In this document: one piece after another, positions 40,123 through 64,000 of the stretch
Layout: each line of letters starts with the position of its first letter
Position numbering within the stretch: position 1 is the stretch's first letter
IMG/VR virus record: IMGVR_UViG_3300029873_000387
Reading direction: 5' to 3' (one strand)
Origin: a virus
Lineage: Duplodnaviria > Heunggongvirae > Uroviricota > Caudoviricetes
Length of the DNA: 64,000 nt
Notes under the pieces: generated by a model
Database searches by the model: none
What the model was told of the DNA's origin: nothing
What the model saw: only the letters and a program-made list of their open reading frames with translations
Made by a program: the position numbers and the translations under genes

Positions 40123-40354
40123 AGTCGTAACTGTAACCTACATGAGTGTTGCTGCGTTTGAATCAAAAGAAGCTCATCTGCAGGGAGCTGAGTGAGCTGC
40201 ATCTGCCAGTATCTTTTTAGTTAAGTTGAGAATAATTGTCGTGATTTGGGTGGGTTTTGTGTAGGATAATACTTGACAAGCCAGGTTTGCTGTGCTATTC
40301 CGGCTGTTGGTTCCCTGGTGGATGTCCAAGGTGCCTTCGGTGACCCCGGAGGAG

Positions 40355-40430
40355 TCGATGGTCATCCTTCTGGGCAGGCGGTGTTTTCCTCCCCGACAAT
40401 TTGTTACTTCAGCCTTTGGCGTGAAGCCCC
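40355..40430. repeat. Conserved noncoding element, copy A (upstream of the RT)
   Basis: CCTCCCCgaCAAtTTGTTACTTcaGCCTTTGGCGtgAAGC, preceded by GGCAGGCGGTGTTTTCC. Same orientation as copies B and C. Confidence 0.6.
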
Positions 40431-40466
40431 CGAAAAGGGTAATTCGTTACAGTTCAATGGCGCATT

Positions 40467-41276: not shown

Positions 41277-41310
41277 AATGCACCGCCCTCCTTTCGTTTC
41301 TCATTGCTGA

Positions 41311-41988: not shown

Positions 41989-41990
41989 TA

Positions 41991-44433: not shown

Positions 44434-44460
44434 AGGAACACCTCTATTCATTTTGTTATA

Positions 44461-44545
44461 TGGTGGGGAATATCGGAGTCGAACCGATATGGTATGCACC
44501 AGCGGATTTTAAGTCCGCAGCGTCTGCCTGTTCCGCCAATTCCCC
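44461..44545 (-). tRNA. tRNA-Leu (anticodon UAA), type II
   Basis: GGGGAAT-TGGCGGAACAGGCAGACGC-TGCGGA-CTTAAAA-TCCGC-TGGTGCATACCATAT-CGGTTCGACTCCG-ATATTCCCC-A-CCA. Confidence 0.85.
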
Positions 44546-44596
44546 ATAGAAAGAGCCGCCCATTCGGGCGGCTCGGCTGGTTTAATTGCTTGTGAA

Positions 44597-44824
44597 TCAG
44601 GCATTATCGGCCTTGACCACATTCAGCAGGAAGCACTTCTCGGTGATACCGAACTGAGCGAAGGTCTTGTCGAGGTCGCCGGGGTTCAAAGAGGAACCGT
44701 CGAGGTGCATGACGCCACGGGTGTAGTCAACGCCGTTTGCCTCCAGGCAGGCACGCAGGGTAGTGGACTCGTCGATGATAACGGACTCGCGCTTGACATT
44801 GTTGCCAACAGTAACCTTAATCAT
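44597..44824 (-). CDS. Small beta-grasp protein, possibly ubiquitin-like (ThiS/MoaD-like pattern), ending in ...KADNA with no terminal GG
   Basis: MIKVTVGNNVKRESVIIDESTTLRACLEANGVDYTRGVMHLDGSSLNPGDLDKTF... follows the ThiS pattern M.I.V......V.....TL..L...G......V.L.G..L....L. Confidence 0.4.
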   Translation of the reverse strand: MIKVTVGNNVKRESVIIDESTTLRACLEANGVDYTRGVMHLDGSSLNPGDLDKTFAQFGITEKCFLLNVVKADNA

Positions 44825-44866
44825 AATGTTTCTCCTTTAATTCAAAATTTGTTTTGTTGTGAAACG

Positions 44867-44895
44867 GAACGGGGCGGTGTAAACCGCCCCGTTTT
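44867..44895. terminator. GC-rich hairpin terminator between two minus-strand genes
   Basis: CGGGGCGGTgtaaACCGCCCCG followed by TTTTG on the plus strand. The U-tract is weaker on the minus strand. Confidence 0.45.
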
Positions 44896-44906
44896 GCGAC
44901 CCGTGA

Positions 44907-45305
44907 TTACTGAGCGACCGTGATGTTGCTCATCACAGTTGCCTTCTCACCCGCAATCTCATCGAGAACGGCGGGCAGCTTCTCCTCAAGCTTGTTGAGG
45001 TTGATGATGGCGGCGCCCAGACGGTCGGCAACCCAATCCTTGACATCGCCGGTCACGCCGTCAAGGAACAGGGTGATACACGCCAGCTTCTCATCATCGC
45101 GGGTCTCAGCGCCGAAAGAAGCGCCGAAAGCGTTGATGTTACCGGCACCACTGGTGGTACCCACAGCGAAGATAGGCTCCTTACCGTCCTCGCCGCCCTT
45201 GAGAACCAGCTCCTTGGGGCGGTACTTCTCAATGGTCTTGATGTCCTCCAGCTTCATTGCGGAAGTTACGACAGCTGCGTCGCCTGCGATAGTGATTTTT
45301 GCCAT
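44907..45305 (-). CDS. Hypothetical protein (Gly/Ala-rich)
   Basis: 132-aa ORF with a hairpin terminator immediately downstream, suggesting high expression. Confidence 0.5.
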   Translation of the reverse strand: MAKITIAGDAAVVTSAMKLEDIKTIEKYRPKELVLKGGEDGKEPIFAVGTTSGAGNINAFGASFGAETRDDEKLACITLFLDGVTGDVKDWVADRLGAAIINLNKLEEKLPAVLDEIAGEKATVMSNITVAQ

Positions 45306-45397
45306 GATGTATGTACTCCTTCAATACTGATGTACTCCTATTGGTTCACCTTGCGGTTATCCGCCCACACCACGGGGAGGTTGGAGCCGTTGTGGGT

Positions 45398-45432
45398 ATA
45401 AAACGCGCCCGGTCTCCTTCACGGAGCGCCGG
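45398..45432 (-). terminator. Hairpin terminator downstream of 45498..46172
   Basis: On the minus strand: GCCCGGCGCTCCGTGAAGGAGACCGGGCGC then GTTTTATAC. Confidence 0.4.
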
Positions 45433-45497
45433 GCACTTGTAAAAAGCTATTTGATTTTACAGGTTCGGGCAAAAGCTGATGGCTGCGCCATGCAGCT

Positions 45498-46172
45498 TTA
45501 AGTGCAGAAGCCGAAAGCGACGCCATTACTGTCGTTGGCGTAGTAAAAGTTGGCGCCGCCGTTGCTGTTGACACGACAGAAAAAATCGCTGTAGCCAGAA
45601 CGAGGAGAACGCAACATGGTGTACTCGGGATTACCGTTGCGAAGCTTGAACCATGCGACATCCTCCTGACGATACCATTCGTACCAATGTCCCTCGCCGG
45701 GCGCAGAGTAGATATTGCGCCCATACAATTCCTTCTCGGACTTTATCCAGAAAGAATCCAGTGTCTCAATGATACGATTTTCTCCTGTGTACACATCGGC
45801 TGTCTGCTTAATGACTGGCGTGACAACATCCAAAATCTCATCGGGAATCAGACGATGGATGTCGCCGTCCGCATCGTTGAGCCGGTGGCGAATTTGGGTT
45901 GCCTCCCACGACCCCTCGTTGGTGTCCCGTCTATTCCACGGGTAAGTGTTAGGCAGACAGTCTACCATCTCCCACGAAATGGGAGCCAAAGAACCGTCGC
46001 TTGTTTTGTCATGATTGAAGCCGATGATGCGAAACTGAACCTGCGCACCGTTCTTCAGCACAACATTGCGGTAATCTCCGAGCTGCAAGAAATCAGCCGC
46101 ATATTTTCCAAGCCCTTTCAAAGAACGCCAGGGCATATTATCCAAGCAGTTTGGCATCTCACAGACCTCCAA
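45498..46172 (-). CDS. Hypothetical protein
   Basis: 224-aa ORF, Trp/Asn/Gly-rich. Confidence 0.5.
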   Translation of the reverse strand: MEVCEMPNCLDNMPWRSLKGLGKYAADFLQLGDYRNVVLKNGAQVQFRIIGFNHDKTSDGSLAPISWEMVDCLPNTYPWNRRDTNEGSWEATQIRHRLNDADGDIHRLIPDEILDVVTPVIKQTADVYTGENRIIETLDSFWIKSEKELYGRNIYSAPGEGHWYEWYRQEDVAWFKLRNGNPEYTMLRSPRSGYSDFFCRVNSNGGANFYYANDSNGVAFGFCT

Positions 46173-46181
46173 TCAAAAATG

Positions 46182-46272
46182 TGGCGGGGAGTGTAGGATT
46201 TGAACCCACGGACGGCTCATCACCGTCAACGGTTTTCAAGACCGCCGCCATAAGCCACTCGGCCAACTCCCC
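46182..46272 (-). tRNA. tRNA-Ser (anticodon UGA), type II
   Basis: GGGGAGT-TGGCCGAGTGGCTTATGGC-GGCGGT-CTTGAAA-ACCGTT-...long variable arm...-GGGTTCAAATCC-...-ACTCCCC-G-CCA. Confidence 0.85.
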
Positions 46273-46288
46273 ATAAAAGAAGGGCGGG

Positions 46289-46954
46289 TCATTTCAGACC
46301 GCCGCCCTTAATATCATTCCAAAAACCACCGCTAAACTCGTCATCGTCCACCGGATAACCGGCATCATCCTCATACGGGAACTCCGTATAGACCTCGCAG
46401 CCAGTTTCTTCATCCGTGATAATCATGGGGCGGTAAATGGATAAGCACTGCTCCTGTGCGAGGTACTCCAAGAAGTGGTCTAATACCTCGTTTACGAACA
46501 TTTCTCCATATGTATCCATGATTTCAGGGCTGTTATCTATTGACTCCTGCAAGACCACGGACAGGAAATCACACAAAGCAAGAGAAAGCTCGTCCTCACG
46601 CTCATACTGCGCATCCTCCATATCCTGCCGAGTCAAATCCTCCGGCTCTTCTTCCGGCGGTTCCGGCGGGCACTTCTTCCCGTCAACAATCATAATAGGA
46701 AAAAGATATTGTGCATACAGGCGCTTTGCCGCTTCGTTACACCCTGTTTCGGTCAGAACACACTCTTCGTACTCTGGCTTTGCATCACCCTTGCACACAG
46801 AAAACAAAGGAAGCGCATTATCCTCGGTAAGATAAACCGCATACTGTGTGTCTGTGTTCTCTGCGATGACGACCATTTCCTTTGACAAACGGTCTTTATG
46901 ACTTTGGAAGAAAGTCCACGCTGTATTTGCGGCTACATAAATATGAACCCCCAC
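46289..46954 (-). CDS. Hypothetical acidic protein
   Basis: 221-aa ORF. Confidence 0.5.
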   Translation of the reverse strand: MGVHIYVAANTAWTFFQSHKDRLSKEMVVIAENTDTQYAVYLTEDNALPLFSVCKGDAKPEYEECVLTETGCNEAAKRLYAQYLFPIMIVDGKKCPPEPPEEEPEDLTRQDMEDAQYEREDELSLALCDFLSVVLQESIDNSPEIMDTYGEMFVNEVLDHFLEYLAQEQCLSIYRPMIITDEETGCEVYTEFPYEDDAGYPVDDDEFSGGFWNDIKGGGLK

Positions 46955-46982
46955 GGTAAATAACCTCCTTGCGAGTTAAAAT

Positions 46983-47058
46983 TGGTGCCCCCGATGGGGC
47001 TCGAACCCATGACACCCGCCTTAAAAGGGCGGTGCTCTACCAGCTGAGCTACGGAAGC
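46983..47058 (-). tRNA. tRNA-Lys (anticodon UUU)
   Basis: GCTTCCG-TAGCTCAGCTGGTAGAGC-A-CCGCC-CTTTTAA-GGCGG-GTGTC-ATGGGTTCGAGCCCCAT-...-CACCA. Confidence 0.85.
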
Positions 47059-47198
47059 ATAAACCGGCTGTTACGGGGCGCCCAGAAAGGTGGACACGCT
47101 TGGATTCCACAGCAGCTTTGCCGTTTGAAAGGAAGGCGATGAACGACGGACGAAAAGGAGAGAGCTGCTGAAAGGACACAACACCGTGGCAAAGCTAA

Positions 47199-47282
47199 TG
47201 GTGCAGGATAAGAGACTCGAACTCTTACGCCAAAGGCAGCGGGACTTGAATCCGCTGTGTCTGCCAATTCCACCAATCCTGC
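47199..47282 (-). tRNA. tRNA-Leu (anticodon CAA), type II
   Basis: GCAGGAT-...-GCGGA-TTCAAGT-CCCGC (one A/C mismatch closes the anticodon stem)-...-GAGTTCGAGTCTC-TTATCCTGC-A-CCA. With a fully paired stem the loop would be 9 nt, so the stem is drawn with a mismatch. Confidence 0.75.
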
Positions 47283-47410
47283 ATATGAGAGTGGCTTTAA
47301 GGTCAGCCAACCACCATCTGACTAACTATTTTGTCATTACAGGCGTACTCTCTATTGGAAAGCCGTTAGCCTGTAATCTTGCCCCAGTCATGTTTGTTGG
47401 AAGGGCTCCG

Positions 47411-47497
47411 TGGTGCGGGTAGTGAGACTTGAACTCACACGCCCCGACGGGCACAAGCACCTCAAGCTTGCCTGTCTGCCGATTCCAGCATACCCGC
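47411..47497 (-). tRNA. tRNA-Leu (anticodon GAG), type II
   Basis: GCGGGTA-...-CAAGC-TTGAGGT-GCTTG-...-GTGAGTTCAAGTCTCAC-TACCCGC-A-CCA. Confidence 0.85.
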
Positions 47498-47513
47498 ATA
47501 AGACCAGAATCTT

Positions 47514-47726
47514 TTACTCAACAATCAGGATAATAGAACTCCCACGCCGGGGAAGACACCACTTTCTAATTGTGGCACACTTCACTTCAGGTTTCATGTA
47601 ACGCTCATCGTCGATGGCTCCGCTATACAGCGTTTCACAAAGGCCGTTTGTGTTACGCCGAACCAACAGACTATCAACCCGAGAATCCAGAGAAAAGTGT
47701 GCTCTTATGAAATCCAGAACCGTCAT
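47514..47726 (-). CDS. Small hypothetical protein
   Basis: 70-aa ORF. Confidence 0.35.
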   Translation of the reverse strand: MTVLDFIRAHFSLDSRVDSLLVRRNTNGLCETLYSGAIDDERYMKPEVKCATIRKWCLPRRGSSIILIVE

Positions 47727-48046
47727 GAAGTGACCTCCTTTGCGAAAGTTTCAAAGAGCTTGTCCAGTTCTGTTGCATCAACTTCAAGCTCGTCACTGTC
47801 GTCAATGCGCTTAATATCGCTGGGCGCAACGAACCATCCGTACCCGTGAGAACACGATTCCCGACAGTCATGACCTCCGACAACCTCCTCGTCCCATCTA
47901 ACCCCGATATGCGGGAAGGTGTCAACGATAATGCAGACAACGCCCTGCATCCCAACAGAGATACTATCGTTATCATCAGGCGAATCTCGGATACATTCGA
48001 CTCTATCGCCGACATTAAGGGTATCAGCAATCATGTCCTCGCCCAT
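47723..48046 (-). CDS. Small Cys/His-containing phage protein (possibly DUF4314-like)
   Basis: Start at MGEDMIADTLNVGDRVECI...GVRWDEEVVGGHDCRESCSHGYGWFV. Confidence 0.4.
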   Translation of the reverse strand: MGEDMIADTLNVGDRVECIRDSPDDNDSISVGMQGVVCIIVDTFPHIGVRWDEEVVGGHDCRESCSHGYGWFVAPSDIKRIDDSDELEVDATELDKLFETFAKEVTS

Positions 48047-48207
48047 CTTCTTCCTCCTCAAAATGCTTGATGATTTCTGCAATGGAGTAATCATCCCACC
48101 ATCCGCCAGAATACTGGACAGCGGAACCGAAGAAACCCCGTTTAACAACAACTGTCTTGTTGGGAATGTCGATATACACTCTTATCCGTCGCATTCTAAC
48201 CCTCCAT

Positions 48208-49026
48208 TTATCTCCAGTTGGTGGACACGCGGCCATCCGGATGGATAATGATATTGGAATAGCCGTCACCATAATCATTGTGACGCTGCTGCCACATATC
48301 ACCGAGTGTTACACGGGCGTGTTTTCCTGCATAGTCAAAGGTTGCGTACACAAAGAAATCACCGATTCTGAATGTGTGTACATCAACATCCGCATCCTGC
48401 TGCAAATCGTTCCAGATGTCTACGGGGTAATCCTTCTTTTCAAGGCCACTCAGGAACCGGAAAGAAAAGCTGCTGGCATCCATCTCCATGTAGTCCTTGA
48501 TAGAAGCAAGCGTAGGATTCTCAACTATCGTTTGAACTGTACACCCCGGAAAACCAGCCGGGTCTGTCCAGACATAATCGTTGCGTGAAAGGTTGATGTG
48601 TGCCAGTCCATTTAACTCCGTGCTGAAACCCGTGGTGTTGATGGAGCAAAACACATCATTACCGTTCTTACGATAAGTCTCAACGATATTGGCGATGTGC
48701 TTGGGATAAAGGCCGGGTTCGCCGCCCGTGATAGACAGCCGTGCGTTGGGATGCTCCTGCAAAACCCGCTTCAACGCCTCGATTTGTGCATCGAAATCAT
48801 TGTCTCCCGACATAGGGTTCTGCCGTTCCAAGCAGAAGGGGCAGTGGAACGGACACTCCTGTGTCGTAATCATCTGGACATTGATGCGGTAATAGAGAGG
48901 GCGTCCGAGAGAAGTTTTGGCTGTCCTGTTCGCCAGCCTATACTGCAAGTCGTTGCTCATTTCGGCCCGGATTTCCTCGTAGGAAGATATGTGTGGTATG
49001 TAGTTCATCTTGCTGCTCATCGGCAC
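48208..49026 (-). CDS. Radical SAM enzyme
   Basis: CPFHCPFC (CX3CX2C) and SITGGEP (SAM glycine-rich motif). 272 aa. Confidence 0.75.
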   Translation of the reverse strand: MPMSSKMNYIPHISSYEEIRAEMSNDLQYRLANRTAKTSLGRPLYYRINVQMITTQECPFHCPFCLERQNPMSGDNDFDAQIEALKRVLQEHPNARLSITGGEPGLYPKHIANIVETYRKNGNDVFCSINTTGFSTELNGLAHINLSRNDYVWTDPAGFPGCTVQTIVENPTLASIKDYMEMDASSFSFRFLSGLEKKDYPVDIWNDLQQDADVDVHTFRIGDFFVYATFDYAGKHARVTLGDMWQQRHNDYGDGYSNIIIHPDGRVSTNWR

Positions 49027-49046
49027 CCCTCCTTATGAATTGTTTC

Positions 49047-49247
49047 TCAGCCTCTGCCCACCAAGAGGAAGGCTATAAATGCGACAAGAACCGTTATTAC
49101 GACACTGTCATAAGCTACTCGAACATAGTTATCAGTTCTCATTCGCTCCATCTTTGTACGGAGGCGCTGGATTTCTTCGTTCTTGCTTTCACGCTCAAAT
49201 TTGTATCGGTAATACGCATCACCGGATATAAAATCATTACGCTCCAT
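49047..49247 (-). CDS. Small membrane protein
   Basis: 66 aa with a C-terminal TM segment VVITVLVAFIAFLLVG. Confidence 0.4.
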   Translation of the reverse strand: MERNDFISGDAYYRYKFERESKNEEIQRLRTKMERMRTDNYVRVAYDSVVITVLVAFIAFLLVGRG

Positions 49248-49275
49248 ACTTTTGCCTCCTTACCAAAGTCATGTT

Positions 49276-49668
49276 TTATTGAATGCCATCTATCCACACC
49301 TCTATTGTGCGGCGATTTGCAAACTGTTTGCAGAGTTCCTCGATAGATATACCATGCGCTTTTGCGTCCGCTTTCATTGCCGCAAACTGGTCTTTATATT
49401 TCTTGACCATTTTTTCAAGTGTAAGGAAACGCTCTTTGTCCGCAGGATAGAAAACAATATCATCTAATCGAACTTCGTCGATATTGCCAGAGTGAAATAT
49501 TGCCTTCCAGCAGTCCTTGCACGGCTCATCCAGTGGCGATACTTGGTGGTTTATGCAATTACTGCAACAGACGACCACGCCATTTACCTTAATTGGTTTC
49601 ATCGGTTGTCCTCCTTTGCAATAAGGTAGCTGTTTTTTAGGGTTTTTCGCGCTGCCGCAGATTTCCAC
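49276..49668 (-). CDS. Cys-rich hypothetical protein
   Basis: 130 aa (CKGG...CCSNCINH...CKDC). Confidence 0.45.
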   Translation of the reverse strand: MEICGSAKNPKKQLPYCKGGQPMKPIKVNGVVVCCSNCINHQVSPLDEPCKDCWKAIFHSGNIDEVRLDDIVFYPADKERFLTLEKMVKKYKDQFAAMKADAKAHGISIEELCKQFANRRTIEVWIDGIQ

Positions 49669-49829
49669 GCATTGTCCTTACCGTCTACCCCTAATGCCAC
49701 ATGGGGTCACAGACCCTAAACACTTCTGCTCTGTGCCGGTTGTGTTCTGATACCGGAAAACATCCTGGAGACTTTGTTTAACCTTGTTGCTCCAGTCCTC
49801 AAGGGTAACTCGGCAAGTGGCTTGCCTAT

Positions 49830-49905
49830 TGGTGGAGATAGTCGGACTTGAACCGGCGACCCTCTGCGTGCAAAGCAGATGCTCTCCCAACTGAGCTATA
49901 TCCCC
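49830..49905 (-). tRNA. tRNA-Ala (anticodon UGC)
   Basis: GGGGATA-TAGCTCAGTTGGGAGAGC-A-TCTGC-TTTGCAC-GCAGA-GGGTC-GCCGGTTCAAGTCCGAC-TATCTCC-A-CCA. The G3:U70 alanine identity pair is present. Confidence 0.85.
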
Positions 49906-50032
49906 ATCTCGGAAGCGGCTTAAAACCCTTTGCTACTCAGCCGCATGATGTTCCCCAATTTGCTGCTTCCTGCACTCTGGAAATACAGGACATTCTTTGC
50001 TCCAGAAACAAAGCATGAACATCGTTCCCTAT

Positions 50033-50122
50033 TGGTGGGAAAGGTTGGATTTGAACCAACAAGGGTTGCGCAACTTCCCAGGGCTTAACTCACCCCGCGT
50101 CTAACCGTTTCGCCACTTTCCC
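50033..50122 (-). tRNA. Type II (long variable arm) tRNA with a non-canonical anticodon loop; identity unresolved
   Basis: GGGAAAG-TGGCGAAACGGTTAGACGC-GGGGTGAGTTAAGCCCTG-...-GGTTCAAATCC-AACCTTTCCC-A-CCA. The anticodon arm folds with either a 9-nt loop (TGAGTTAAG) or a 7-nt loop (GAGTTAA) that lacks U33. Confidence 0.55.
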
Positions 50123-52475: not shown

Positions 52476-52983
52476 TGTAAGCCCCTTTCCATTGTTGATA
52501 ACGGGAGGAAGTTTCACCAAACGGATACAGCCGCGATACTCCGACTTCCAAGGATGCACTTTTTAATCTTATCCCGTGGTCATGGCAGCATTTCCATAAC
52601 ACTTGGACACTTTCGTAGTCCCCAACGCCTTGTAAAGCTTTCAGAATTTTGGGTGCCCCCTCACTTACCTTCACTAATACAAGGACTAAGCGTTAAGCGG
52701 AAAACCACTCCACGGAATCGTACCGTGCCAGCCTTACGGCATCGAACCTCGCTTCAAGGTGAACCATGTTTCCCCGATAATCAGATACACTCCGCCAAAG
52801 CCATATCGCCGGATTTCAAAGATTCCGTGGATACCAAAGTGCCAAACCATATTGCCTCCTATGTGTCTGCGAACCATTCACCATGACCGTTCTGAAACTC
52901 CTGTCGTTTTTCATATCAGAAAACACTGCAATTTATTGCGCTGAGTTCGACAGTTCTATGGTGAAAGGCGGCAAACTGAGAAA

Positions 52984-54428: not shown

Positions 54429-54986
54429 TTTGAAATGCCCCTTTCACAGTTTTTTCTTGGGTGATAACAGGTTTATCACTCAATGAAGCCGCCGAAGAAA
54501 ACCCTCGGCGGCTCTATCAATGATAAACCCGATATTTGAAATGGTTCCGGCTCTGCATTTCGGCGCATGGGGTATATTTTTCCCCACAGCCGTTGCAGTA
54601 TCGAACGGAACACGCACCATTTCCGATACTCATTTCTATCGGGGACTGTTCTGTTCAATTCGCAATACTTGACCAAATTCGGCTTTCATACCTATATGCC
54701 CTTGCTTTCGGCTCCTCGGAGCGCAATACCCTTGGGTAGAAAACTCGGACGATACTACTTACTTTCAAAAGTCGTTCTTGTATAGCCATCAGTTATGCAA
54801 GCCGCACTTAGGTTCATAGGCGCAAACCTCCGGGGATTTTCACTATCTCGTACCATGAGCCTAACTCTCATGCACCGGCGACGCCTTTGATAGCAAAGGT
54901 ACTCTATTGACATTCGCTCAATAGTGCGTTGACTTGCCATTCCCGGAAGTGGCGAACATCTCCGCTTGTATTCCGTGGCTTGCCTT

Positions 54987-55163
54987 GTGGGGTCTTGCCC
55001 TACACCCTTAACCGCAAGGGGTGTACCCTGTGTGCGGCGGGGTCTGTGGGGTCTTGCCCTACACCCTTAACCGCAAGGGGTGTACCCTGTGTGCGGCGGG
55101 GTCTGTGGGGTCTTGCCCTACACCCTTAACCGCAAGGGGTGTACCCTGTGTGCGGCGGGGTCT
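54987..55163. repeat. Three perfect tandem copies of a 59-bp unit (GTGGGGTCTTGCCCTACACCCTTAACCGCAAGGGGTGTACCCTGTGTGCGGCGGGGTCT)
   Basis: Directly visible. Each unit contains the inverted repeat TACACCC...GGGTGTA. A 19-bp fragment (CGCAAGGGGTGTACCCTGT) recurs at 56390-56408, upstream of the sigma-like gene. Confidence 0.85.
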
Positions 55164-55192
55164 GTGGGGCGTTCCTTGCGGTTGCGGGTGGT

Positions 55193-55254: not shown

Positions 55255-56241
55255 TTAGTCCTGTGCGGTGGTCAGTCCGTGCGGGGTCAGTCCCGCCGCC
55301 GTGGCTTTCGTCTGTATCTGTCCCACGGTCTTTGCAATCGCCCTTTGAGTTACACCCAAATAGGTTGCAATAGCCTTGTACCCCTTGCCTTGCATACGCA
55401 AGCGGAGAATTTGCGCTTGTCTGTCGGTCAGGTTCAGACTTGCCACAAGGGCGGCATAGTCGGCGGCGGTCTGTCGGTCGGTGGTGTAGTTTCCGTTACA
55501 GTCGTACCCGCCTAAATCGGTGTACTTGTTCATGCGGTAATAAATGGTGTCCAGTCCGTCGGCGGTCAAGTCCTCTATGTAGCTGTACCCGTTGCGGGGG
55601 TCGGTCTGAACGGCACGGGAATTTTGAACGGCTTGCCGAACGGCCCTATAGATTTCTTGAATAGGGGTCGTTTCATCGTCCCTATATGCTGCGCTTTCGT
55701 CGGCACGGATATAGACACGGCGGGACAGGCGGCGGACGGTGTAGGGGGTGTCAAGCCACTTTTCGCCGTTGGCGTGGTCGGCGGCTTGTTCCAGAATGGC
55801 AAGGGCGGCGGTCTGTACAAGGTCGATACCGTCGGACAAGGTTTCATCAATCAGTCCCGCAAGGGCGTTGTTTGCGTCCTTGTCTGCAATCACGGTCACT
55901 AAATCGCCGTCGGCGTTGTAGGTGTTGGCGGTTGCGCCGTTGGCTGTGCGGCGGGTGTTGTCCAGCGTGGCAAGGTCGGCGGCAATCCCTCTTTTCAGTG
56001 CAACCATAGCGGGATTAAATCCGGTGTTGCTTGCGGTGTCACGCTGTGCGGCGGTCTTGCGTTGCGGGTCAATACACTTGTTCAAAACAGAGTATGCAAC
56101 GGCGGTTGCAAGGGCGGTCAATTCCTGTGCGGTGTCCTTGCCCTGTGCAAGGGCGGTTTCATAGTTTCGTTTTACGGTTTCAAAGGTGGTTGCAGTGGTG
56201 GTGTTGGCTTTCGCCTGTGCGGTTGTTTTGTTCGTGTTCAT
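55255..56241 (-). CDS. DNA-binding regulator with a sigma-70 region-4 / LuxR-type C-terminal HTH and a low-complexity Thr/Ala/Asn-rich N-terminus
   Basis: C-terminus LTDRQAQILRLRMQGKGYKAIATYLGVTQRAIAKTVGQI. Start set at MNTNKTT (AAAGGGA RBS). The ORF track begins at 56343. GC content is about 60%, above the window average. Confidence 0.5.
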   Translation of the reverse strand: MNTNKTTAQAKANTTTATTFETVKRNYETALAQGKDTAQELTALATAVAYSVLNKCIDPQRKTAAQRDTASNTGFNPAMVALKRGIAADLATLDNTRRTANGATANTYNADGDLVTVIADKDANNALAGLIDETLSDGIDLVQTAALAILEQAADHANGEKWLDTPYTVRRLSRRVYIRADESAAYRDDETTPIQEIYRAVRQAVQNSRAVQTDPRNGYSYIEDLTADGLDTIYYRMNKYTDLGGYDCNGNYTTDRQTAADYAALVASLNLTDRQAQILRLRMQGKGYKAIATYLGVTQRAIAKTVGQIQTKATAAGLTPHGLTTAQD

Positions 56242-56772
56242 CGTGTTTCCCTTTCTGCCGGTGGTGTTTTTGGCTTGCGGTGTGGTGTTGTGGTGTTGGT
56301 TTGTCCCGCTTGCCTTGTCCGGCATGAACAAGTATAGCACCACTTGCCCATAATGTCAACACAATTTTTTTGAATACACCCATAGTCGCAAGGGGTGTAC
56401 CCTGTCGCAAGCGTCCCCGCCGTGTCTGCCGTTCGTTGTGCCGCCGTTGGCGGTGTGGTGTCTACTTGCCTTTTCGGTGCTATGGCAAGTAGGGGGGTGG
56501 TTATGGTCTTTTCAGCCCCCGCCGACAGCGCAAACAGATGTAGTCGGTTCATCTGACCCAAACCATCACTTTTTACTGCAAGTCCCACACGCCTTGATTT
56601 TACTTGCTTTCTCGGCAAAGAATGTCCAGAGGAACATGATTGGTTAAGCCCTTTGCGTGGATGCTTATGAGGAGGATTCAACTTGTCCAAAAGAGAAAAG
56701 GGCTTAACTACGCCGCCTGTTATTTATACTTCTGTTTTTCACTGTTTTCCCTATGTTGTCTACTAATTATAC

Positions 56773-56801
56773 TTACATTCCATAAAGGAATGTGGTATAA
56801 T
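56773..56801 (+). promoter_or_regulatory. Sigma-70 promoter of the recombinase gene, with an embedded palindrome
   Basis: TTACAT, 17 bp, TGgTATAAT (extended -10). The spacer contains the perfect inverted repeat CATTCCataaaGGAATG. Confidence 0.5.
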
Positions 56802-56859: not shown

Positions 56860-57687
56860 ATGGCTAAGATAATCCACATCGACTTCACACAGGAGGCTAA
56901 GCCCTCATCTGTCATCGACATTGCCACCGTCCAGCAGAGCTGCCGTAAGCTCAAGGCTGGCCTCATCGCCCCCGCTGCTGAAGAGGTACATACCGACCTT
57001 GCCGTCGAGCACTCCGCTGAGCCTATCAAGAGCATGGATGATATCATCCGCATCTCTCAGTTCCTGATTGGACAAAAGCGGTTCAGAGATAATATGCTGT
57101 TCATTGTTGGTATTAACTTTGGACTTCGTATCAGTGACCTCCGTATGCTTCGGTTCACTCATATCATCAATGATGATTGCACTTTCCGTGACCGCTTTCC
57201 GGTTCTGGAGAAGAAGACACGGAACACTCGCAAGCGTCAGCGCAACCGCTACATCACCATTAACACAGCAGTTGTGGAAGCCGTGACCCTGTATCTTGAG
57301 AACACGCCCGGTGTTCACCTCAGCGACTATATGTTCCGCAGCCAGTCCAATAATGGGGTGAACGAAAACAAGCCTATCAGCAAACAGGCCGTTGACCTCA
57401 TGCTTAAGGGTATCGCCAAAGACCTTGGTCTTGGTAATCGTATGGCGACCCACACACTGCGTAAGACCTTCGCCTATCATCAGATGGTGATGAGTGGTAA
57501 TGACCCCCGCAAGCTGCTGCTTCTCCAGAAAATATTTGGTCACTCCACCGCTGCTCAGACTCTGGACTACATCGGCATCACCAGCGAAGAGATTGATGAA
57601 GCCTATCGGAACCTCAACCTCGGCAGCGTCAATCACAACTATCTGGTCGATAGTGACATTGGAGAGACTGAGATTTTGATGGCCTAA
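56860..57687 (+). CDS. Tyrosine recombinase/integrase (short Xer-like form)
   Basis: Catalytic residues within ISDLRMLR, HTLRKTF and GHSTAAQTLDYI (R...HxxR...Y). 275 aa. GAAAGGAG RBS. Confidence 0.85.
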   Translation: MAKIIHIDFTQEAKPSSVIDIATVQQSCRKLKAGLIAPAAEEVHTDLAVEHSAEPIKSMDDIIRISQFLIGQKRFRDNMLFIVGINFGLRISDLRMLRFTHIINDDCTFRDRFPVLEKKTRNTRKRQRNRYITINTAVVEAVTLYLENTPGVHLSDYMFRSQSNNGVNENKPISKQAVDLMLKGIAKDLGLGNRMATHTLRKTFAYHQMVMSGNDPRKLLLLQKIFGHSTAAQTLDYIGITSEEIDEAYRNLNLGSVNHNYLVDSDIGETEILMA

Positions 57688-57975: not shown

Positions 57976-59193
57976 ATGAACCAGATAACTATTGTTGACG
58001 CCCGTATGGGCAGAGGTAAATCGTCGGCAGCTATTCGTTACATGAACCGGCACAAGGACAGCAAGCGGTTTTTGTACATCACCCCATATCTGGACGAGGT
58101 CGGGCGTATCTGCGAACGCTGCGACTTTGACCAGCCGGACAGCGACCACATGAGCAAGTCATCTGAGTTGAAGCTCCACCTTCGTCTTGGACACAATGTC
58201 TCCGCAACGCATTCGCTGTTTTATCTGATGGACGACGAGGCGCTGAAGTTAATTCGAGAGAAGCACTATTCTCTTATCGTAGACGAGAGCATCCAGGTGA
58301 TAGAGAGGTTGAATATCACTGATAAGGATTTCGACCTGATTGTCACACAGCTCGCTGAAGTTTTAGAAGACGGATGCATCCAGTGGAAAGATGAGGAGTA
58401 CACCGGGCGGTTCAGCGATTACAAGGAGATGGCAAACACCCGCTCACTATTCCGGCTGGACAATGCGCTGCTGAACATTCTCAACCCAGAACTACTTCGC
58501 TCATTTGATGAAGTGTTCATGCTGACCTATCTTTTCAATGGGCAGTACCAGAAAGCATACCTGGATTATTTCGGGTTTGACTACAGAGTAGTTGGCGTGG
58601 AGAGCGACGCCAATGGCTATCGATTCTCTGACAGGCCGGACGAACCGCCGCCCCTGGATTACCACGACCTGATACATATTGTGGACAGTCCCAAGCTCAA
58701 TGCTGTTGGGGACAAGACTTATACCCTGTCCAAGTCATGGTACGACAAACGGGGGTATAACAACGCTGAGATTCGCACGCTGCGAAACGGCATGAAGAAG
58801 TTCTTTCAAAGTGTCCCGGGCGGTGGTCATGATACACGACTGTGGACTTGCTACAAGAGCGATGTAAACAAACTGGTGGACAGTAAAACAGGAAGGTTCC
58901 GAAAGAACTTTTTACAGACCAGTGCCAGAGCGACCAATGAGTACAAAGACCGTACCGATGTGGCATACATGGTCAACCGGTTTGCAGACCCCAACATCAT
59001 GAAATTCTTCCATGCCCAGAATATTACTATTGATGCGGATGCCTTCGCACTGTCAGAGATGCTGCAGTGGATATGGAGAAGCGCCATTCGTGATGACCGC
59101 CCCATTAACCTATACATACCGAGTAAGCGCATGAGAGAGCTGCTCATAAATTGGATAGACACAACGAACGGAGGAAAGACGATTGCAGAATAG
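57976..59193 (+). CDS. P-loop NTPase (possible replication or packaging ATPase)
   Basis: Walker A ARMGRGKSSAAI and Walker B SLIVDESIQV. 405 aa. Confidence 0.5.
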   Translation: MNQITIVDARMGRGKSSAAIRYMNRHKDSKRFLYITPYLDEVGRICERCDFDQPDSDHMSKSSELKLHLRLGHNVSATHSLFYLMDDEALKLIREKHYSLIVDESIQVIERLNITDKDFDLIVTQLAEVLEDGCIQWKDEEYTGRFSDYKEMANTRSLFRLDNALLNILNPELLRSFDEVFMLTYLFNGQYQKAYLDYFGFDYRVVGVESDANGYRFSDRPDEPPPLDYHDLIHIVDSPKLNAVGDKTYTLSKSWYDKRGYNNAEIRTLRNGMKKFFQSVPGGGHDTRLWTCYKSDVNKLVDSKTGRFRKNFLQTSARATNEYKDRTDVAYMVNRFADPNIMKFFHAQNITIDADAFALSEMLQWIWRSAIRDDRPINLYIPSKRMRELLINWIDTTNGGKTIAE

Positions 59194-59355: not shown

Positions 59356-59557
59356 AGGATTTTATTTTTCCCTTATCATAGCAATTAAATATAATACAAC
59401 TGTGAGGTGAGCAAGTCTGGCAAAACAGTTAGTATGTCAGAAGTATATCTTCAAACTGCATAGCAGCAGACTGCGAAAGGCTAAGTGGAAGCTGACGCTA
59501 CCCATAGCGGAGGCGCGACGAAACGATGAGGTCATTTCGCTTGCAGACAGCCAGGTA

Positions 59558-62161
59558 TTGCGCTGGCTGGATGAGCTGAACGGGATTACAGATGCTGAGG
59601 TCAGAGCGAAGGAAATCAAGATGGAAATTCGGCGTCTGCGCAAAGAGCAGAACAGTGTGCAGAATCGCCGCCGCATCAAGCAGCTTTATGCGCAACTGGA
59701 CACCATCCAGTTCAAGCCGGATTATCTGTGCGTAATCATCGACAAGGAAAAAGATTATCACCGTGCCTGCCGTGGATTCAGCATTAACGGCATCAAGTAT
59801 CAGCGGCTCTTGGGGACGAACGGCGGCGTCAAGAATGAGACGATTGTCTTTGTCAGCGAACGGCACGCAGATGAAATCCGTAGGCGTATCAACAACGGTC
59901 GCAATATGGAAAAGGCGATGGTGCCTGCCAAGCTGGAAGCTTATAACGCATTGACTTGCAGCGCATCCATCCCTGTGTCTATGCCGCACGGTATTCTGGT
60001 GGTAAGCGACTGTGAGACGGAGTTCCTGTCCGATATCATTTACCTGAACGATGAGGGCGACGGCGAACCTGTGATGGAGGAGCGTAAGCAAACAACGGTG
60101 CAGCTTAAGGAGTCAGACGGATATGGCCTGATGCTTCCATCTCTGGCAAGGCGTTGGTCAGAGGAGCTTGAACTTGACTATCTTGTCAGCGGAGTGAACA
60201 CCAGATTCTCATGGGAGAAGGGTATGGTATTTACCTTTGACTTTTTGGACTTCGCCGAGAATATCGCAGGGACTTACATTGTCAAGGACGCATGGGGTAA
60301 CGATGTGGATGTGCGGAATGTGGAACTGATACTGACAACATCCATGCTGAAGTTGTGGGACGCCTATGACAGCTGCGATGACTATGTGCAGAATTGTCTC
60401 CGCAACGGTTATACCTTCGGCGTGGCGAAGACCTGCCCCAGAGAGCTGGAAAGCGAGAGAACACTGAACTATCAGTTCATCCAGAGCTATGAGCTGGATG
60501 ACGCAGATATGGAGCAGCTCATCAAGCCAACAATGGATGAGATAAAGGATGTGCTGTATGCCGATTGGGCAAAAACCGTTCTGTTTCTCAAAGGCGCAGG
60601 GCTGAACGAAGAGAATGTCGGCTGCATGGAAAACGACTTTATAAAGGCGCTGATGATTGAGCCCCACATTCTTAACGACCCCTATGTTCAGAGTAGCGTT
60701 TACCAGATGATAAAGAACCGCATTAACGAGGCCAAGGTGGGTGTGCTGAAGGTACACGGAAATTATTCCATTGTGTCCGGCGACCCCTACTCCCTCTGTC
60801 AGCACATCTTTGCCATGCCGGTGACGGGGCTGTTAAAGGCCGGTGAAATCTATAACCAGTACTGGTGCCGACAGGGCGCGCAGAAGCTTGCCTGCTATCG
60901 AGCACCAATGACCTGCCACAATAATATTCGATTGGTGTATCCGAACCACAGCGAGGTGGCGGCTTACTGGTATCAGTATATGACGACCTGCACTATCTTC
61001 AATTCGTGGGACACTGCTGCCCATGCCCTGAATGGCATGGACAAAGATGGCGACCTTGTGATGCTGACCGATAACGATGTTCTCGTCCGCAACCTGAGAG
61101 AACTTCCTGCGCTGATGTGTGTGCAGCGTAATGCCAAAAAGAAAATCGTCACCGAGGCAGACTTCATTCAAGCAAACATCGACAGCTTTGGCGATGACAT
61201 CGGGAAGACAACAAACTGGATTACCTCCATGTTTGATGTGCGGGCGCAATTCAAAAAAGGCAGCGAAGAATACGAGGCGCTTGATTATCGTATCAAGTGT
61301 GGACAGTTATTCCAGCAGAATGCTATCGACAAGGCCAAAGGTATTATTGCCAAGCCCATGCCGAGAGAATGGCACGACCGCCACAGCGTCAACACCATTG
61401 AAGACCCCGCCAAGCGCCGCTTTTATCAGAAAATCGTAGCGGATAAGAAGCCGTATTTCATGCGTATTATCTATCCTGCGCTGATGAAGCAATACAATAC
61501 ATACATAAAAAACACCAATAAGAATGCCATGCGTGAATTCCAGATGACGGTAGATGAATTGCTGGAGCTGCCGCCTAACGAACTGAACGACCGGCAAAAG
61601 GACTTTCTCCGCTACTATGAGTCCCGGATGCCCGTGGGTAATCACGACTGTGTGATGAACCGGATATGCCGCCGTTTCGAGCAAGAGTTTGACGGGTATC
61701 TCGGACGGCACAGTGCAGAGACGGAGTTTGACTACACCGTTATGAAAAGCGGCGCCGCTTATACCCGTTCACAGTACAACGCAATTCTGAAGCTGTATGA
61801 GAATTATAACCACCGGCTGCGCAGCTATGCTGTGTTTGCGAACTACGAACGGGTAGACGAGTATGACACCTTCTCAAAGATGATGGAAATGCGCACTGAG
61901 TTTGAGCAGGAGTGCAGCAAGATTTGCTCCAATCGGTTTGCCCTGTGCGACATCGTATTGGACATTTGCTACCGGAAGAGCTCGACCAAACGGTTTGCAT
62001 GGGAGATGTGCGGAAATGAAATCATCTGCAATCTGCTGAACAAGCACGAAGGATTGATTTCTTATCCGACTATCGACCCCGCCGGAGAAATCGTGTTCTG
62101 CGAGAATCGCTTTACCCTGAGACAAAAAAGACTGGAGGAATTCAATGAGCATTGTTCTTAA
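59558..62161 (+). CDS. Large protein with a DxDGD motif; candidate YonO/QDE-1-like two-barrel single-subunit RNA polymerase
   Basis: About 860 aa. LNGMDKDGDLVMLTDND matches the universal DxDGD catalytic motif of two-barrel RNA polymerases. The size is close to B. subtilis SPbeta YonO (839 aa). The start may be ATG 59621 (AAGGAA RBS) rather than TTG 59558. Confidence 0.45.
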   Translation: MRWLDELNGITDAEVRAKEIKMEIRRLRKEQNSVQNRRRIKQLYAQLDTIQFKPDYLCVIIDKEKDYHRACRGFSINGIKYQRLLGTNGGVKNETIVFVSERHADEIRRRINNGRNMEKAMVPAKLEAYNALTCSASIPVSMPHGILVVSDCETEFLSDIIYLNDEGDGEPVMEERKQTTVQLKESDGYGLMLPSLARRWSEELELDYLVSGVNTRFSWEKGMVFTFDFLDFAENIAGTYIVKDAWGNDVDVRNVELILTTSMLKLWDAYDSCDDYVQNCLRNGYTFGVAKTCPRELESERTLNYQFIQSYELDDADMEQLIKPTMDEIKDVLYADWAKTVLFLKGAGLNEENVGCMENDFIKALMIEPHILNDPYVQSSVYQMIKNRINEAKVGVLKVHGNYSIVSGDPYSLCQHIFAMPVTGLLKAGEIYNQYWCRQGAQKLACYRAPMTCHNNIRLVYPNHSEVAAYWYQYMTTCTIFNSWDTAAHALNGMDKDGDLVMLTDNDVLVRNLRELPALMCVQRNAKKKIVTEADFIQANIDSFGDDIGKTTNWITSMFDVRAQFKKGSEEYEALDYRIKCGQLFQQNAIDKAKGIIAKPMPREWHDRHSVNTIEDPAKRRFYQKIVADKKPYFMRIIYPALMKQYNTYIKNTNKNAMREFQMTVDELLELPPNELNDRQKDFLRYYESRMPVGNHDCVMNRICRRFEQEFDGYLGRHSAETEFDYTVMKSGAAYTRSQYNAILKLYENYNHRLRSYAVFANYERVDEYDTFSKMMEMRTEFEQECSKICSNRFALCDIVLDICYRKSSTKRFAWEMCGNEIICNLLNKHEGLISYPTIDPAGEIVFCENRFTLRQKRLEEFNEHCS

Positions 62162-62912
62162 CGAATATGACTGGGCGGAGAGAATGTTGAACAACCACGA
62201 GCTTGGGCAGAAACCCGTGGAGACGCTTAACCGCATTTCAAGATACTACTATGCGAACCAATACAGCAAAAAAGAGATTCGGCGGCTACTCGACTCCTTT
62301 ATGCTGCAGTGCGACCCATCCGTCTCGCTTGTCCAGTGGTCGGATATTCTGGACAAGCTGACAAAGAATGTCGCTAAGTTCCCATTGATTCGGTTGGACG
62401 GGGTTGACATCACCGATAACGAACTGCGAAAGATTGAGTCGCTTGAAGGAAAGCAGCTTCGGCGGTTGGCGTTCACGCTGTTGTGTGTTGCCAAGTACTG
62501 GGATGCCGCATCCGACAAGAACAATCACTGGGTCAACAGTTCCGATAAGGAAGTCATGCAGATGGCAAACATCAACACCTCTATCAAACGGCAGAGCCTT
62601 ATGTTCGCAGAACTGCGCAGTGCCGGATTTATTCGATTTTCCAAAAAGATTGACAACCTGAATGTGCAGGTGTGTTTTATGGAGAACGGTAAAACAGCGA
62701 TACATATTCAGGACTTCCGCAACCTTGGCTATCAGTACATGAAGCATTATGGCGGACAATACTTTGAGTGCGAGAACTGTGGTCTGACGGTAAAGGTGCA
62801 GGAGCCCGCCAAAGGTCGTCCGCAGAAGTATTGCCCCAACTGCGCTGTGGAGCTTCACACAAGACAGATTGTAAATTCAGTAATGCGCCGAAGACAGGCT
62901 TTGAAAAATTGA
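62145..62912 (+). CDS. Hypothetical protein with a C-terminal zinc ribbon
   Basis: 255 aa. CENCG...CPNC near the C-terminus. Translationally coupled to the large upstream gene. Confidence 0.5.
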   Translation: MSIVLNEYDWAERMLNNHELGQKPVETLNRISRYYYANQYSKKEIRRLLDSFMLQCDPSVSLVQWSDILDKLTKNVAKFPLIRLDGVDITDNELRKIESLEGKQLRRLAFTLLCVAKYWDAASDKNNHWVNSSDKEVMQMANINTSIKRQSLMFAELRSAGFIRFSKKIDNLNVQVCFMENGKTAIHIQDFRNLGYQYMKHYGGQYFECENCGLTVKVQEPAKGRPQKYCPNCAVELHTRQIVNSVMRRRQALKN

Positions 62913-63043
62913 ATCTGTTTACAAAAAGTGCCCCCGTCAAACCGTTGTGCCACAAGGTAAAAGGGCGTGTTTGATGGGGTGTTGTAATGAATGATAAAAG
63001 CAAATCTATAAAATAAAAATTTGAAGCAAAGGATGATAGTTCA

Positions 63044-63232
63044 GTGATTGCAATTACTTTATCAGAAAAAGAGGCCATTCGTGAGAGGTTCCCCCGTGTT
63101 CACATTGTGCGCACAATGAAGAGCGACTCAAAACGGCATCATTATTATATGGTTGAGGAGGGCGCCCCCATGAGACTGTTGCGCAGCCTGCGTGGGCAGG
63201 AGCGCCCTCGTGACAAACGAAAGGGAGTGTAA
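63044..63232 (+). CDS. Small basic hypothetical protein
   Basis: 62-aa ORF. Confidence 0.3.
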   Translation: MIAITLSEKEAIRERFPRVHIVRTMKSDSKRHHYYMVEEGAPMRLLRSLRGQERPRDKRKGV

Positions 63233-63265
63233 GCCATAGGCACCAATACAGCAAGCTATAAAGAA

Positions 63266-64000
63266 ATGCGCAACATCGTTATGGGAAAGCTGGTTGACCA
63301 CACCATAGACGATGAGTACGAGGATTTGAGCGAGCGTCTGTTTGGTGAGGGCAACTGCTTCAACTCCAGTGAAGTCCGGAAGAGGATGTACGGGATGCGT
63401 ACCATCATCGAAGCTATTGAGCGTGACGGTGAGGACGCCGTATGCGATGAAGAGCAGCTGTCTGCACTGGAGACCAGACGCATTGAGCTGCTCAAGGAAC
63501 GACAGAAGTTCTTTGACCAGAGAAATGCATTCAACAAACTAATTCGTGAGCGTTCCCGACAGGAGGAACTTAACGAGATTCTTGTGGAGGCAGTCAGGAA
63601 CGGAAACTTACCTCGCCTTGCCTATGAGCCGTGCCACATCGAGTCGTCCGACAATGACCTGTTGGTCAGTCTCAACGACATCCATTACGGTGCGGATGTG
63701 GACAACCATTGGAATACATACAACTCAAATGTGTGCAGAGAGATGATGTGCCGATATCTGGACAGGGTCGTTGCTATCGGCGAGACTCATGGCAGTGAGA
63801 ATTGCATTGTCTGGTCAAACGGTGACGCAATCAGCGGCAATATTCACCAGTCTATTGCTGTCACCAACAAGGAGAATGTGATTGAGCAAATCAAGGGCGT
63901 TTCGGAATTGATTGCAGAGTTCCTTGCTGAACTGAGCAAACACTTCAAATCTGTGGTGTTTGTCAGCGTGGCAGGCAATCACAGCCGCATTACGCCTAAT
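63266..64000 (+). CDS. Partial CDS (3' end beyond window): metallophosphoesterase (Mre11/SbcD- or phosphatase-like)
   Basis: Open frame from ATG 63266 to the window end. Motifs DIHYGADVD, GDAISG and VAGNHS. Not in the ORF track because it has no stop. Confidence 0.55.
   Translation, partial: MRNIVMGKLVDHTIDDEYEDLSERLFGEGNCFNSSEVRKRMYGMRTIIEAIERDGEDAVCDEEQLSALETRRIELLKERQKFFDQRNAFNKLIRERSRQEELNEILVEAVRNGNLPRLAYEPCHIESSDNDLLVSLNDIHYGADVDNHWNTYNSNVCREMMCRYLDRVVAIGETHGSENCIVWSNGDAISGNIHQSIAVTNKENVIEQIKGVSELIAEFLAELSKHFKSVVFVSVAGNHSRITPN

Follow-up and report, generated by a model that had tools for sequence, protein, structure and literature searches.

A relative of the phage RNA polymerase YonO and its conserved zinc-ribbon neighbour in a gut phage genome

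We have analysed a 64,000-nucleotide (nt) stretch of DNA from a virus of the Caudoviricetes (IMG/VR record IMGVR_UViG_3300029873_000387; 'the window', by which we mean the whole of this stretch) and describe here a plus-strand gene within it whose product is a relative of YonO, the single-chain RNA polymerase (RNAP) of Bacillus phage SPbeta; judged by sequence comparison, the two proteins are homologous along nearly their whole length. Our best explanation, in which we have considerable confidence, is that the gene encodes a YonO-type single-chain, two-barrel RNAP of an SPbeta-like temperate phage whose hosts are gut Clostridia, probably of the family Oscillospiraceae. The polymerase itself is ordinary: standard profiles detect its family membership, and YonO-like enzymes of Firmicute phages have already been described, including that of Clostridium phage c-st (CST179; Iyer et al. 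2021, PMC7824862). The value of the finding lies instead with a conserved partner protein encoded directly downstream, a candidate late control element that follows the partner gene, and a probable non-AUG start codon. YonO-like enzymes are minimal single-chain relatives of the cellular multisubunit RNAPs, and only YonO itself has been studied; our searches reveal a large and abundant clade of its relatives in gut phages, in which polymerase and partner are paired wherever both genes could be examined.

A two-barrel polymerase related to YonO

The original prediction had proposed that an open reading frame (ORF) of about 860 amino acids (aa), carrying the motif DKDGD, encodes a YonO/QDE-1-like RNAP. 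Such an ORF is indeed present: read from the first TTG, as in a six-frame ORF list, the checked translation of 59558..62161 (+) is 867 aa long, includes ALNGMDKDGDLVMLTDND, and places DKDGD at residues 495-499 (nt 61040-61054; we use this 867-aa numbering throughout unless stated otherwise). The gene and its catalytic positions are:

59417..62161, plus strand: predicted YonO-type two-barrel RNA polymerase; probable CTG start, 914 aa; first TTG at 59558, 867 aa
60116..60220, plus strand: catalytic residues of the beta-like barrel, D187, R216 and K221, invariant in a 52-sequence alignment
60899..61054, plus strand: R448 and P450 of the beta-prime-like barrel and the metal-binding D495-K-D497-G-D499, likewise invariant in the alignment

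The proposed identity is now supported by profile homology, by the catalytic residues and by the predicted fold. The protein matches the Pfam family RdRP (PF05183) with an E-value of 1.6e-14 (54 bits, the gathering cutoff being 23.8; residues 67-560), whilst BLASTP against YonO gives 2e-33 over 506 residues and sets DKDGD opposite the DNDGD of YonO. Comparison by hhalign with a YonO-clade profile built from 34 sequences extends the match to 649 columns (99.8%, E 8e-29), spanning residues 119-883 of the window protein (914-aa numbering) and 132-801 of YonO; since homology runs over some 650 aligned columns, DKDGD is not a chance match. Amongst GenBank phages, tblastn finds the RNAP of c-st at 40% identity and 99% coverage, those of Enterocloster phages at 42-43%, that of Bacillus phage BUCT082 at 28.5%, and those of SPbeta-like phages at 25.5% (E 1e-26), the matched gene in these last being the annotated yonO DNA-directed RNA polymerase. 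More than 4,700 RNAP homologues were found in all. NCBIfam holds no family for the polymerase, and PDB sequence searches, whether run with the protein alone or with a profile of 52 sequences, against a library containing no solved YonO structure, returned nothing relevant.

In an alignment of 52 sequences, drawn from the clade of the window protein and that of YonO, residues D187, R216, K221, R448, P450, D495, D497 and D499 are invariant in every member. Eight residues are invariant across two-barrel RNAPs, corresponding in QDE-1 to D709, R738, K743, R962, P964, D1007, D1009 and D1011 (Ruprich-Robert and Thuriaux, PMC2919709); the spacings within the set are 29, 5, 2 and 47 in the window protein, as against 29, 5, 2 and 45 in QDE-1. 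As far as its sequence goes, the window polymerase keeps the complete two-barrel catalytic set. The conserved basic residues to be looked for in the second barrel are accordingly present, R216 and K221 being invariant and spaced as in QDE-1, alongside D187, R448, P450 and the aspartate triad.

The AlphaFold2 (AF2) model of the polymerase has a predicted local distance difference test (pLDDT) score of 74.5 and a predicted template-modelling (pTM) score of 0.69, with the catalytic loop (residues 486-498) falling below a pLDDT of 50. Its predicted fold contains two double-psi beta-barrels in one chain, and a search of the PDB with this model gave QDE-1, plant RDR2 and single-chain two-barrel phage RNAPs as best matches; neither a TOPRIM nor a primase fold, either of which would have spoken for an unrelated protein, appeared among them.

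A probable CTG start codon

Whilst the ORF beginning at 59558 stands, its start was probably placed 141 nt too far downstream. The most likely start of the polymerase is a CTG at 59417, giving a protein of 914 aa, because the upstream codons are conserved as protein and because a Shine-Dalgarno sequence precedes a CTG, ATA or ATT at the same position in relatives:

59404..59410, plus strand: Shine-Dalgarno sequence GAGGTGA, 6 nt before the CTG at 59417; the TGA within it is in frame and closes the ORF on its 5' side

The 49 codons between this in-frame TGA (59408) and the TTG at 59558 read ASLAKQLVCQKYIFKLHSSRLRKAKWKLTLPIAEARRNDEVISLADSQV, a region included in the longer gene calls of homologues, and the 47 codons immediately 5' of 59558 are kept as protein even at loci with an RNAP identity of only 63-70%. 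Across 56 distinct relatives, a conserved (A/S)KQ is preceded by CTG (25), ATA (21), ATT (7) or, once each, ATC, TTG and ATG, such that 53 of the 56 have CTG, ATA or ATT at the start position; at least 45 of them carry a GAGGTG-like Shine-Dalgarno sequence 6-8 nt before it. The GenBank annotation of the BUCT082 RNAP covers the same N-terminal region, and its first codon, translated as an internal one, is leucine and hence not ATG. That so weak a start codon has been conserved suggests a limit on polymerase dosage at translation.

Genomic setting and a proposed mechanism

The polymerase gene lies within a plus-strand block with the following further features:

56772..56801, plus strand: predicted promoter of the sigma-70 type, CTTACA-18-TATAAT plus an upstream TG (10 of 12 matches in a consensus scan; a prediction only)
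56860..57687, plus strand: opening gene of the block, for a 275-aa tyrosine recombinase (Pfam Phage_integrase, 4e-17; PHROG integrase, 1.9e-42)
57976..59193, plus strand: 405-aa YonV-like protein bearing a Walker A-like GRGKSS at its N-terminus (phrog_2467, 4.2e-58)
62145..62912, plus strand: 255-aa partner protein with a helical N-domain and a winged helix, then a C-terminal CxxC...CxxC zinc ribbon and a long terminal helix
62913..62995, plus strand: non-coding element; A-rich box TGTTTACAAAAA, long covarying hairpin, boxes TTTGATGGGGTG and TGTAAT
63044..63232, plus strand: conserved 62-aa ORF after the element, present in nearly all related loci (44-100% identity)
63266..64000, plus strand: 5' part of a YonJ-like metallophosphoesterase/exonuclease gene, which runs off the window

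Both upstream neighbours, a tyrosine recombinase and a P-loop protein, are as the original prediction had described them. Most related loci have a recombinase gene upstream of the RNAP as well. The YonV-like protein, for which NCBIfam has no family, is 36% identical to the product of a gene that neighbours yonO in Goe12, an SPbeta-like phage, and an exact copy of it on a public contig carries a precomputed Pfam YonV_C match. The likeness to SPbeta-like phages that had been remarked upon extends downstream. The window itself ends at the YonJ-like gene, and the order of the HU and late genes beyond it is known from relatives: in a 99%-identical relative (locus L063) the partner gene is followed by the 62-aa ORF, a full-length YonJ-like exonuclease of 388 aa, a second integrase, an HU-family protein, phrog_3314, the large terminase and the portal. 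This exonuclease matches phrog_284 (exonuclease, 6.4e-56) and, by BLASTP (4e-18), the metallophosphoesterase encoded after yonK in an SPbeta-like phage. The 62-aa ORF matched no family, and the idea that it is a YonK homologue is not supported, identity being 24-27% in a gapped three-sequence alignment.

In SPbeta, 37 late genes form a single operon that YonO transcribes from one start site, downstream of yonO and upstream of yonK (PMC5467207); how the promoter is found, and whether a factor is needed, was left open by the authors of that study (Forrest et al. 2017, PMC5467207). By synteny, the late start in the window would be expected just 3' of the partner gene. We therefore envisage four steps, given here in order of decreasing support. 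Host RNAP would transcribe the recombinase, YonV-like, RNAP and partner genes as an operon from the promoter at 56772; the polymerase would then be translated from a deliberately weak CTG start; next, like YonO, it would act as a DNA-dependent RNAP for the late plus-strand operon just downstream, comprising the 62-aa ORF and the YonJ-like exonuclease and then, as in relatives, HU, terminase and portal; lastly, the co-translated partner would serve as a DNA-binding initiation or specificity factor, supplying in trans a zinc ribbon that YonO carries at its own C-terminus, and may act at the hairpin-plus-box element of 62913-62995.

Partner and structured element, lying together at the start of the late genes, offer a concrete candidate factor and a candidate site. 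Taken to its conclusion, this leads to a tentative proposal, one we think rather less probable than its opposite: that the polymerase of this clade is a two-component enzyme, in which a ribbon-less catalytic chain works with a co-translated partner that recognises a single, hairpin-containing late promoter after the partner gene. Were this true, these would be the first promoter-specificity factor and the first promoter for any YonO-like RNAP.

A structured element after the partner gene

The first base of the element is also the first base after the partner stop codon, and the intergenic architecture 3' of the partner is conserved across 44 distinct sequences; in order, these have an A-rich box (TGTT[G/T]ACAAAAA), the hairpin, TTTGATGGGGTG, a TAtAAT-like box and the ribosome-binding site of the 62-aa ORF. 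The hairpin is 14-16 bp long, with an inner stem (AAACCGTTG...CAACGGTTT) conserved in sequence and an outer stem that varies. RNAalifold predicted no structure from the intergenic alignment; the helix was written by hand and tested by pair counts, with shuffle and slid-partner controls. Thus examined, 74% of cells pair (59% in shuffles), compensatory changes are seen in 15 of the 16 pairs, and the covariation score of 0.42 compares with 0.19 in shuffles (none of 500 reaching 0.42) and 0.13-0.23 with slid partners; the hairpin of the window has a folding energy of -27.7 kcal/mol (z -3.3). With a covariance model, each locus yields exactly one copy, in every case 3' of the partner; the model also picks up a copy in BUCT082 (E 0.027), a sequence that it did not include.

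The element could end transcription of the RNAP operon, serve as a late promoter or regulatory site, or combine the two in tandem. The reading that it is simply a terminator or RNA-stability hairpin of the RNAP-partner operon, playing no part in recognition by the phage polymerase, is the strongest rival to our proposal, and we put it at only a little under an even chance. Its position immediately after the partner stop, its long GC-rich stem with compensatory changes, an A-tract before the hairpin and a short T-run after it, and a best sub-threshold Rfam resemblance to a terminator-like small RNA all fit such a role. Set against this, the U-tract is inadequate for a terminator scan, which did not report the element (only TTT follows the stem); sequence conservation of the inner stem and of the downstream boxes extends even to BUCT082, which would be unusual for terminators; and the element sits where SPbeta-type synteny predicts the single late promoter. 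Rfam has no family that matches it, a permissive threshold applied to 62800-63300 giving only matches at chance level.

Two further observations weigh against a role as a late promoter, and the element could be a terminator and nothing else. The covariance model finds no copy in Goe12, PMBT24 or c-st. Moreover, mismatches in the helix are biased to G.T on the plus strand (39, versus 14 for A.C), which favours a plus-strand transcript, or a structure formed by single-stranded plus-strand DNA, over a site in duplex DNA.

At 62930-62985, and within the clade of the window, the 5' hairpin arm (CCCCGTCAAAC) has a second complementary sequence in a downstream box (GTTTGATGGGG). The minimum-energy fold uses this pairing, hinting at alternative structures; compared by eye, it is not clearly shared by more distant relatives.

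The partner protein

The original prediction had seen in the gene following the polymerase a translationally coupled zinc-ribbon protein, and this is borne out: the partner ORF begins 14 nt before the polymerase TAA, overlapping its 3' end by 17 nt, with GGAGG positioned 6 nt before the partner ATG, and its CxxC...CxxC cysteines (C209, C212, C230 and C233) are the only residues invariant across 101 diverse members. The AF2 model is very confident (pLDDT 97.3, pTM 0.90) and consists of a four-helix N-domain, a helix-helix-helix-strand-strand unit that has the topology of a winged helix, a small ribbon and a long C-terminal helix. Neither Pfam nor NCBIfam has a family for the protein, and full-length structural matches in BFVD are confined to unnamed or haphazardly named proteins of uncultured siphoviruses. 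A word-indexed search gave 1,511 relatives and an exhaustive one 1,190 clusters at 50% identity, nearly all of them stand-alone proteins of 240-300 aa.

The gene lies directly 3' of the RNAP in all 80 IMG/VR loci inspected, over a range of 63-100% identity for the RNAP and 44-100% for the partner, and does so again in c-st (CST177, E 3e-27), PMBT24 (E 6e-14) and BUCT082. By tblastn of GenBank phages (E up to 0.01), the partner occurs in nine records, each with an RNAP matching our query at coverage of at least 88%; a tenth record with such an RNAP, the unannotated MT835481.1, gave no partner match, nor did the SPbeta-like phages proper.

What links the two proteins further is the ribbon. In the YonO clade the C-terminus bears an invariant CxxC...CxxC (C799, C802, C816 and C819), whereas in the two C-termini that we read, those of the window and BUCT082 RNAPs, there is a cysteine-poor hairpin and no fused ribbon; the alignment to YonO stops at YonO residue 801, around the C799-C819 ribbon, and it is with YonO 781-827 that the ribbon of the partner aligns (87.6% probability, E 3.5e-6, 47 columns). 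The annotators of c-st had earlier given CST177 the label 'YonO-homolog (C-ter only)'. The partner most likely works with the polymerase, supplying the ribbon in trans, and may, as a predicted DNA-binding initiation or specificity factor, help it to start transcription. The same order of domains, winged helix and then zinc ribbon, occurs in archaeal TFE and eukaryotic TFIIE-alpha; this is an analogy only. The papers on YonO-like enzymes that we consulted make no mention of the partner.

Other observations weigh against such a role. The ribbon-ribbon similarity covers just 47 columns of a very common motif, the RNAP retains its cysteine-poor beta-hairpin at the position of the YonO ribbon, and the winged helix also resembles replication-initiator and repressor domains. 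The 255-aa protein might, then, be an independent winged-helix DNA-binding protein, such as a late regulator, a repressor or a replication/partition protein, which merely shares the operon; to this we give a clear minority chance. The restriction of its YonO likeness to the short ribbon agrees with that reading, as does the fact that SPbeta functions without a recognisable homologue. It sits less well with the strictness of the adjacency (80 of 80 loci plus four lineages of cultured phage, with the RNAP diverged to 28% identity), with a partner gene that overlaps or abuts the RNAP stop codon, or with phage records in which the partner is seen only beside an RNAP matching the query nearly end to end, the two C-termini read being without a fused ribbon.

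Literal fission of the YonO C-terminus to create the partner gene was also considered; we have not adopted it, since only the 47 columns of a common motif align and a degenerate hairpin is retained.

DNA or RNA as template

That the enzyme is instead an RNA-dependent RNA polymerase, copying or amplifying phage or host RNA, is improbable in our estimation. Some labels and likenesses do speak for it, and so against transcription of DNA: the best PDB fold matches, QDE-1 and RDR2, are RNA-dependent; the Pfam family is named RdRP; and the homologues of PMBT24, Perkons and TR-TP1 bear the annotation RNA-dependent RNA polymerase. YonO, however, is the only characterised prokaryotic member of the group, a proven DNA-dependent RNAP that strictly prefers DNA templates, and it is for YonO alone that mutation of the aspartate triad has been shown to abolish processive, DNA-templated RNA synthesis (PMC5467207). 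The window protein is far closer in sequence to YonO (E 2e-33) than to any eukaryotic enzyme of the RNA-dependent kind, QDE-1 going undetected by PDB sequence and profile searches, and synteny with the late structural operon fits the role of YonO. A chance DKDGD in an unrelated fold (TOPRIM, primase or other), or an inactive relic, has next to no chance of being correct: nothing was found in its favour beyond the low modelling confidence of the catalytic loop, and it is refuted by the homology and fold evidence, by eight catalytic residues invariant across two clades and by thousands of conserved homologues.

Other features of the window

The original prediction had also suggested that GCCTTTGGCG-type elements elsewhere in the genome could be promoters of the polymerase, an idea that found no support. 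The window has five exact copies, a number that rises to 15 once a single mismatch is allowed (4.2 expected); none is in or near the late block, and Rfam has no family for them. Three of the exact copies (38602, 38889 and 40412) lie within a 62-nt minus-strand repeat that flanks a retron-type reverse transcriptase; a further intergenic copy (22613) is in a weaker, fourth copy of the repeat, and the fifth (47228) falls inside a tRNA-Leu gene. Together, the reverse transcriptase and the 62-nt copies may form a phage-borne, retron-like system with several non-coding RNA copies.

38965-40122, minus strand: reverse transcriptase, 385 aa; best match to the retron St85 family (4.7e-52), below the family cutoff
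38556-38617, 38843-38904 and 40366-40427, minus strand: copies of the 62-nt repeat, GCTTnnCGCCAAAGGCnnAAGTAACAAnTTGnnGGGnAGGAA on the minus strand; a weaker copy near 22613
15366-19198, 29642-35525, 36927-50122 and 41311-41988, minus strand: RNA repair/tRNA toolkit and other enzymes
52602-52730, 54517-54651 and 54828-54899, minus strand: Rfam RAGATH-36 (151 bits), RAGATH-4 (112 bits) and RAGATH-16 (96 bits)
55255-56343, minus strand: 362-aa ORF with a C-terminal sigma-70 region-4/GerE-type helix-turn-helix (TIGR02937, 3e-5)

The minus strand otherwise encodes a DnaE-type polymerase and a DnaB helicase. It also carries a toolkit for RNA repair and tRNAs, in which ten tRNA genes are joined by genes for a CCA-adding enzyme, RlaP, RtcB, an RNA ligase and an ATP-dependent DNA ligase; further products are a cysteine desulfurase-like aminotransferase of class V and a ThiF/E1-like adenylyltransferase. 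The three RAGATH RNAs are situated in a non-coding stretch between this block and divergent promoters; in c-st, a RAGATH-18 lies just 5' of the HU gene and 3' of the RNAP module (L003:13824-13884, plus strand). At 54986-55169 there is a perfect 59-bp tandem repeat (3.1 copies, each with the inverted repeat TACACCC...GGGTGTA), with a related half-site near 56383-56410. Many IMG/VR contigs of close relatives end some 4.4 kb upstream of the RNAP, that is, at this repeat, which may therefore mark an assembly break point, or else a genome end, an origin or an iteron region. The 362-aa ORF occupies a GC-richer segment and is preceded by TTGACA-17-TATACT (56359-56331); from its helix-turn-helix, the phage may also encode a sigma-like factor for the host polymerase.

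Proteins of the window are abundant in gut metagenomes, a partner of identical sequence being recorded on 979 contigs, the longest of 581 kb. GTDB genomes with close relatives are mostly metagenome-assembled genomes of Oscillospiraceae, Acutalibacteraceae, Ruminococcus and other Clostridia, a few of them probably mis-binned. Two integrases and the long contigs suggest that the phage is temperate.

Comparison with known systems

Other single-chain two-barrel phage RNAPs, those of the crAss-like phage phi14:2 (gp66) and of Thermus phages P23-45/P74-26, share about 10% identity with the window protein, differ in size and have extra domains; gp66 is, by its PDB title, the virion-packaged RNAP of phi14:2, and we find no evidence of packaging for the window polymerase. 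QDE-1 and maize RDR2 belong to the same Pfam family and have an identical D...R-x4-K and a similar R-x-P...DxDGD spacing (47 versus 45), but are only 16-17% identical in structural alignment and escape a PDB sequence search; they copy RNA in silencing pathways and have neither a phage late-gene context nor a partner gene.

The window protein and YonO are single chains of similar size containing both double-psi beta-barrels, with 25-26% identity over about 650 aligned columns and the same eight catalytic residues; as in SPbeta, the polymerase gene adjoins a YonV-like gene and, to judge from relatives, heads a block leading to the genes for HU, a YonJ-like metallophosphoesterase, terminase and portal. 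The window protein differs from YonO in having no C-terminal CxxC...CxxC ribbon, in its probable non-AUG start, and in belonging to a gut Clostridium-class host and not to Bacillus, and its phage differs from SPbeta-like phages proper in the separate winged-helix/zinc-ribbon partner encoded downstream.

At the nucleotide level the window has no close match amongst GenBank phages, similarity being negligible; the closest sequenced phages by protein are c-st (CST179/CST178 for the polymerase, CST177 for the partner), Enterocloster phages PMBT24, CB457P and CB473P, and also Bacillus phage BUCT082. RNAP identity to the window is 40-43% for c-st and the Enterocloster phages and 28% for BUCT082, at 88-99% coverage; in all of them the partner gene lies directly downstream, as in the window, at 25-27% identity, and HU or late genes follow in those that are annotated there, namely PMBT24, BUCT082 and c-st. 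The window gene is intact, whereas that of c-st is interrupted inside DxDGD and those of five of the six Enterocloster phages match in two or three pieces. In the relatives with interrupted genes (c-st, L003; loci L101, L102, L104, L106 and L107; CB457P/CB473P) the interruptions fall at two sites: inside DxDGD after residue 496, with about 300 nt inserted, and after I590 in the invariant NAID|KAKG, with 0.3-1.2 kb. Most of these insertions shift the reading frame, and that of L102 is an Rfam group I intron (88 bits).

BUCT082 has DFDYD in place of DxDGD. Directly 3' of its RNAP gene (L085:3218-5992) lie the partner gene, an HU gene and a copy of the hairpin element, and since the phage infects B. 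subtilis, it offers a tractable model for the partner-bearing clade.

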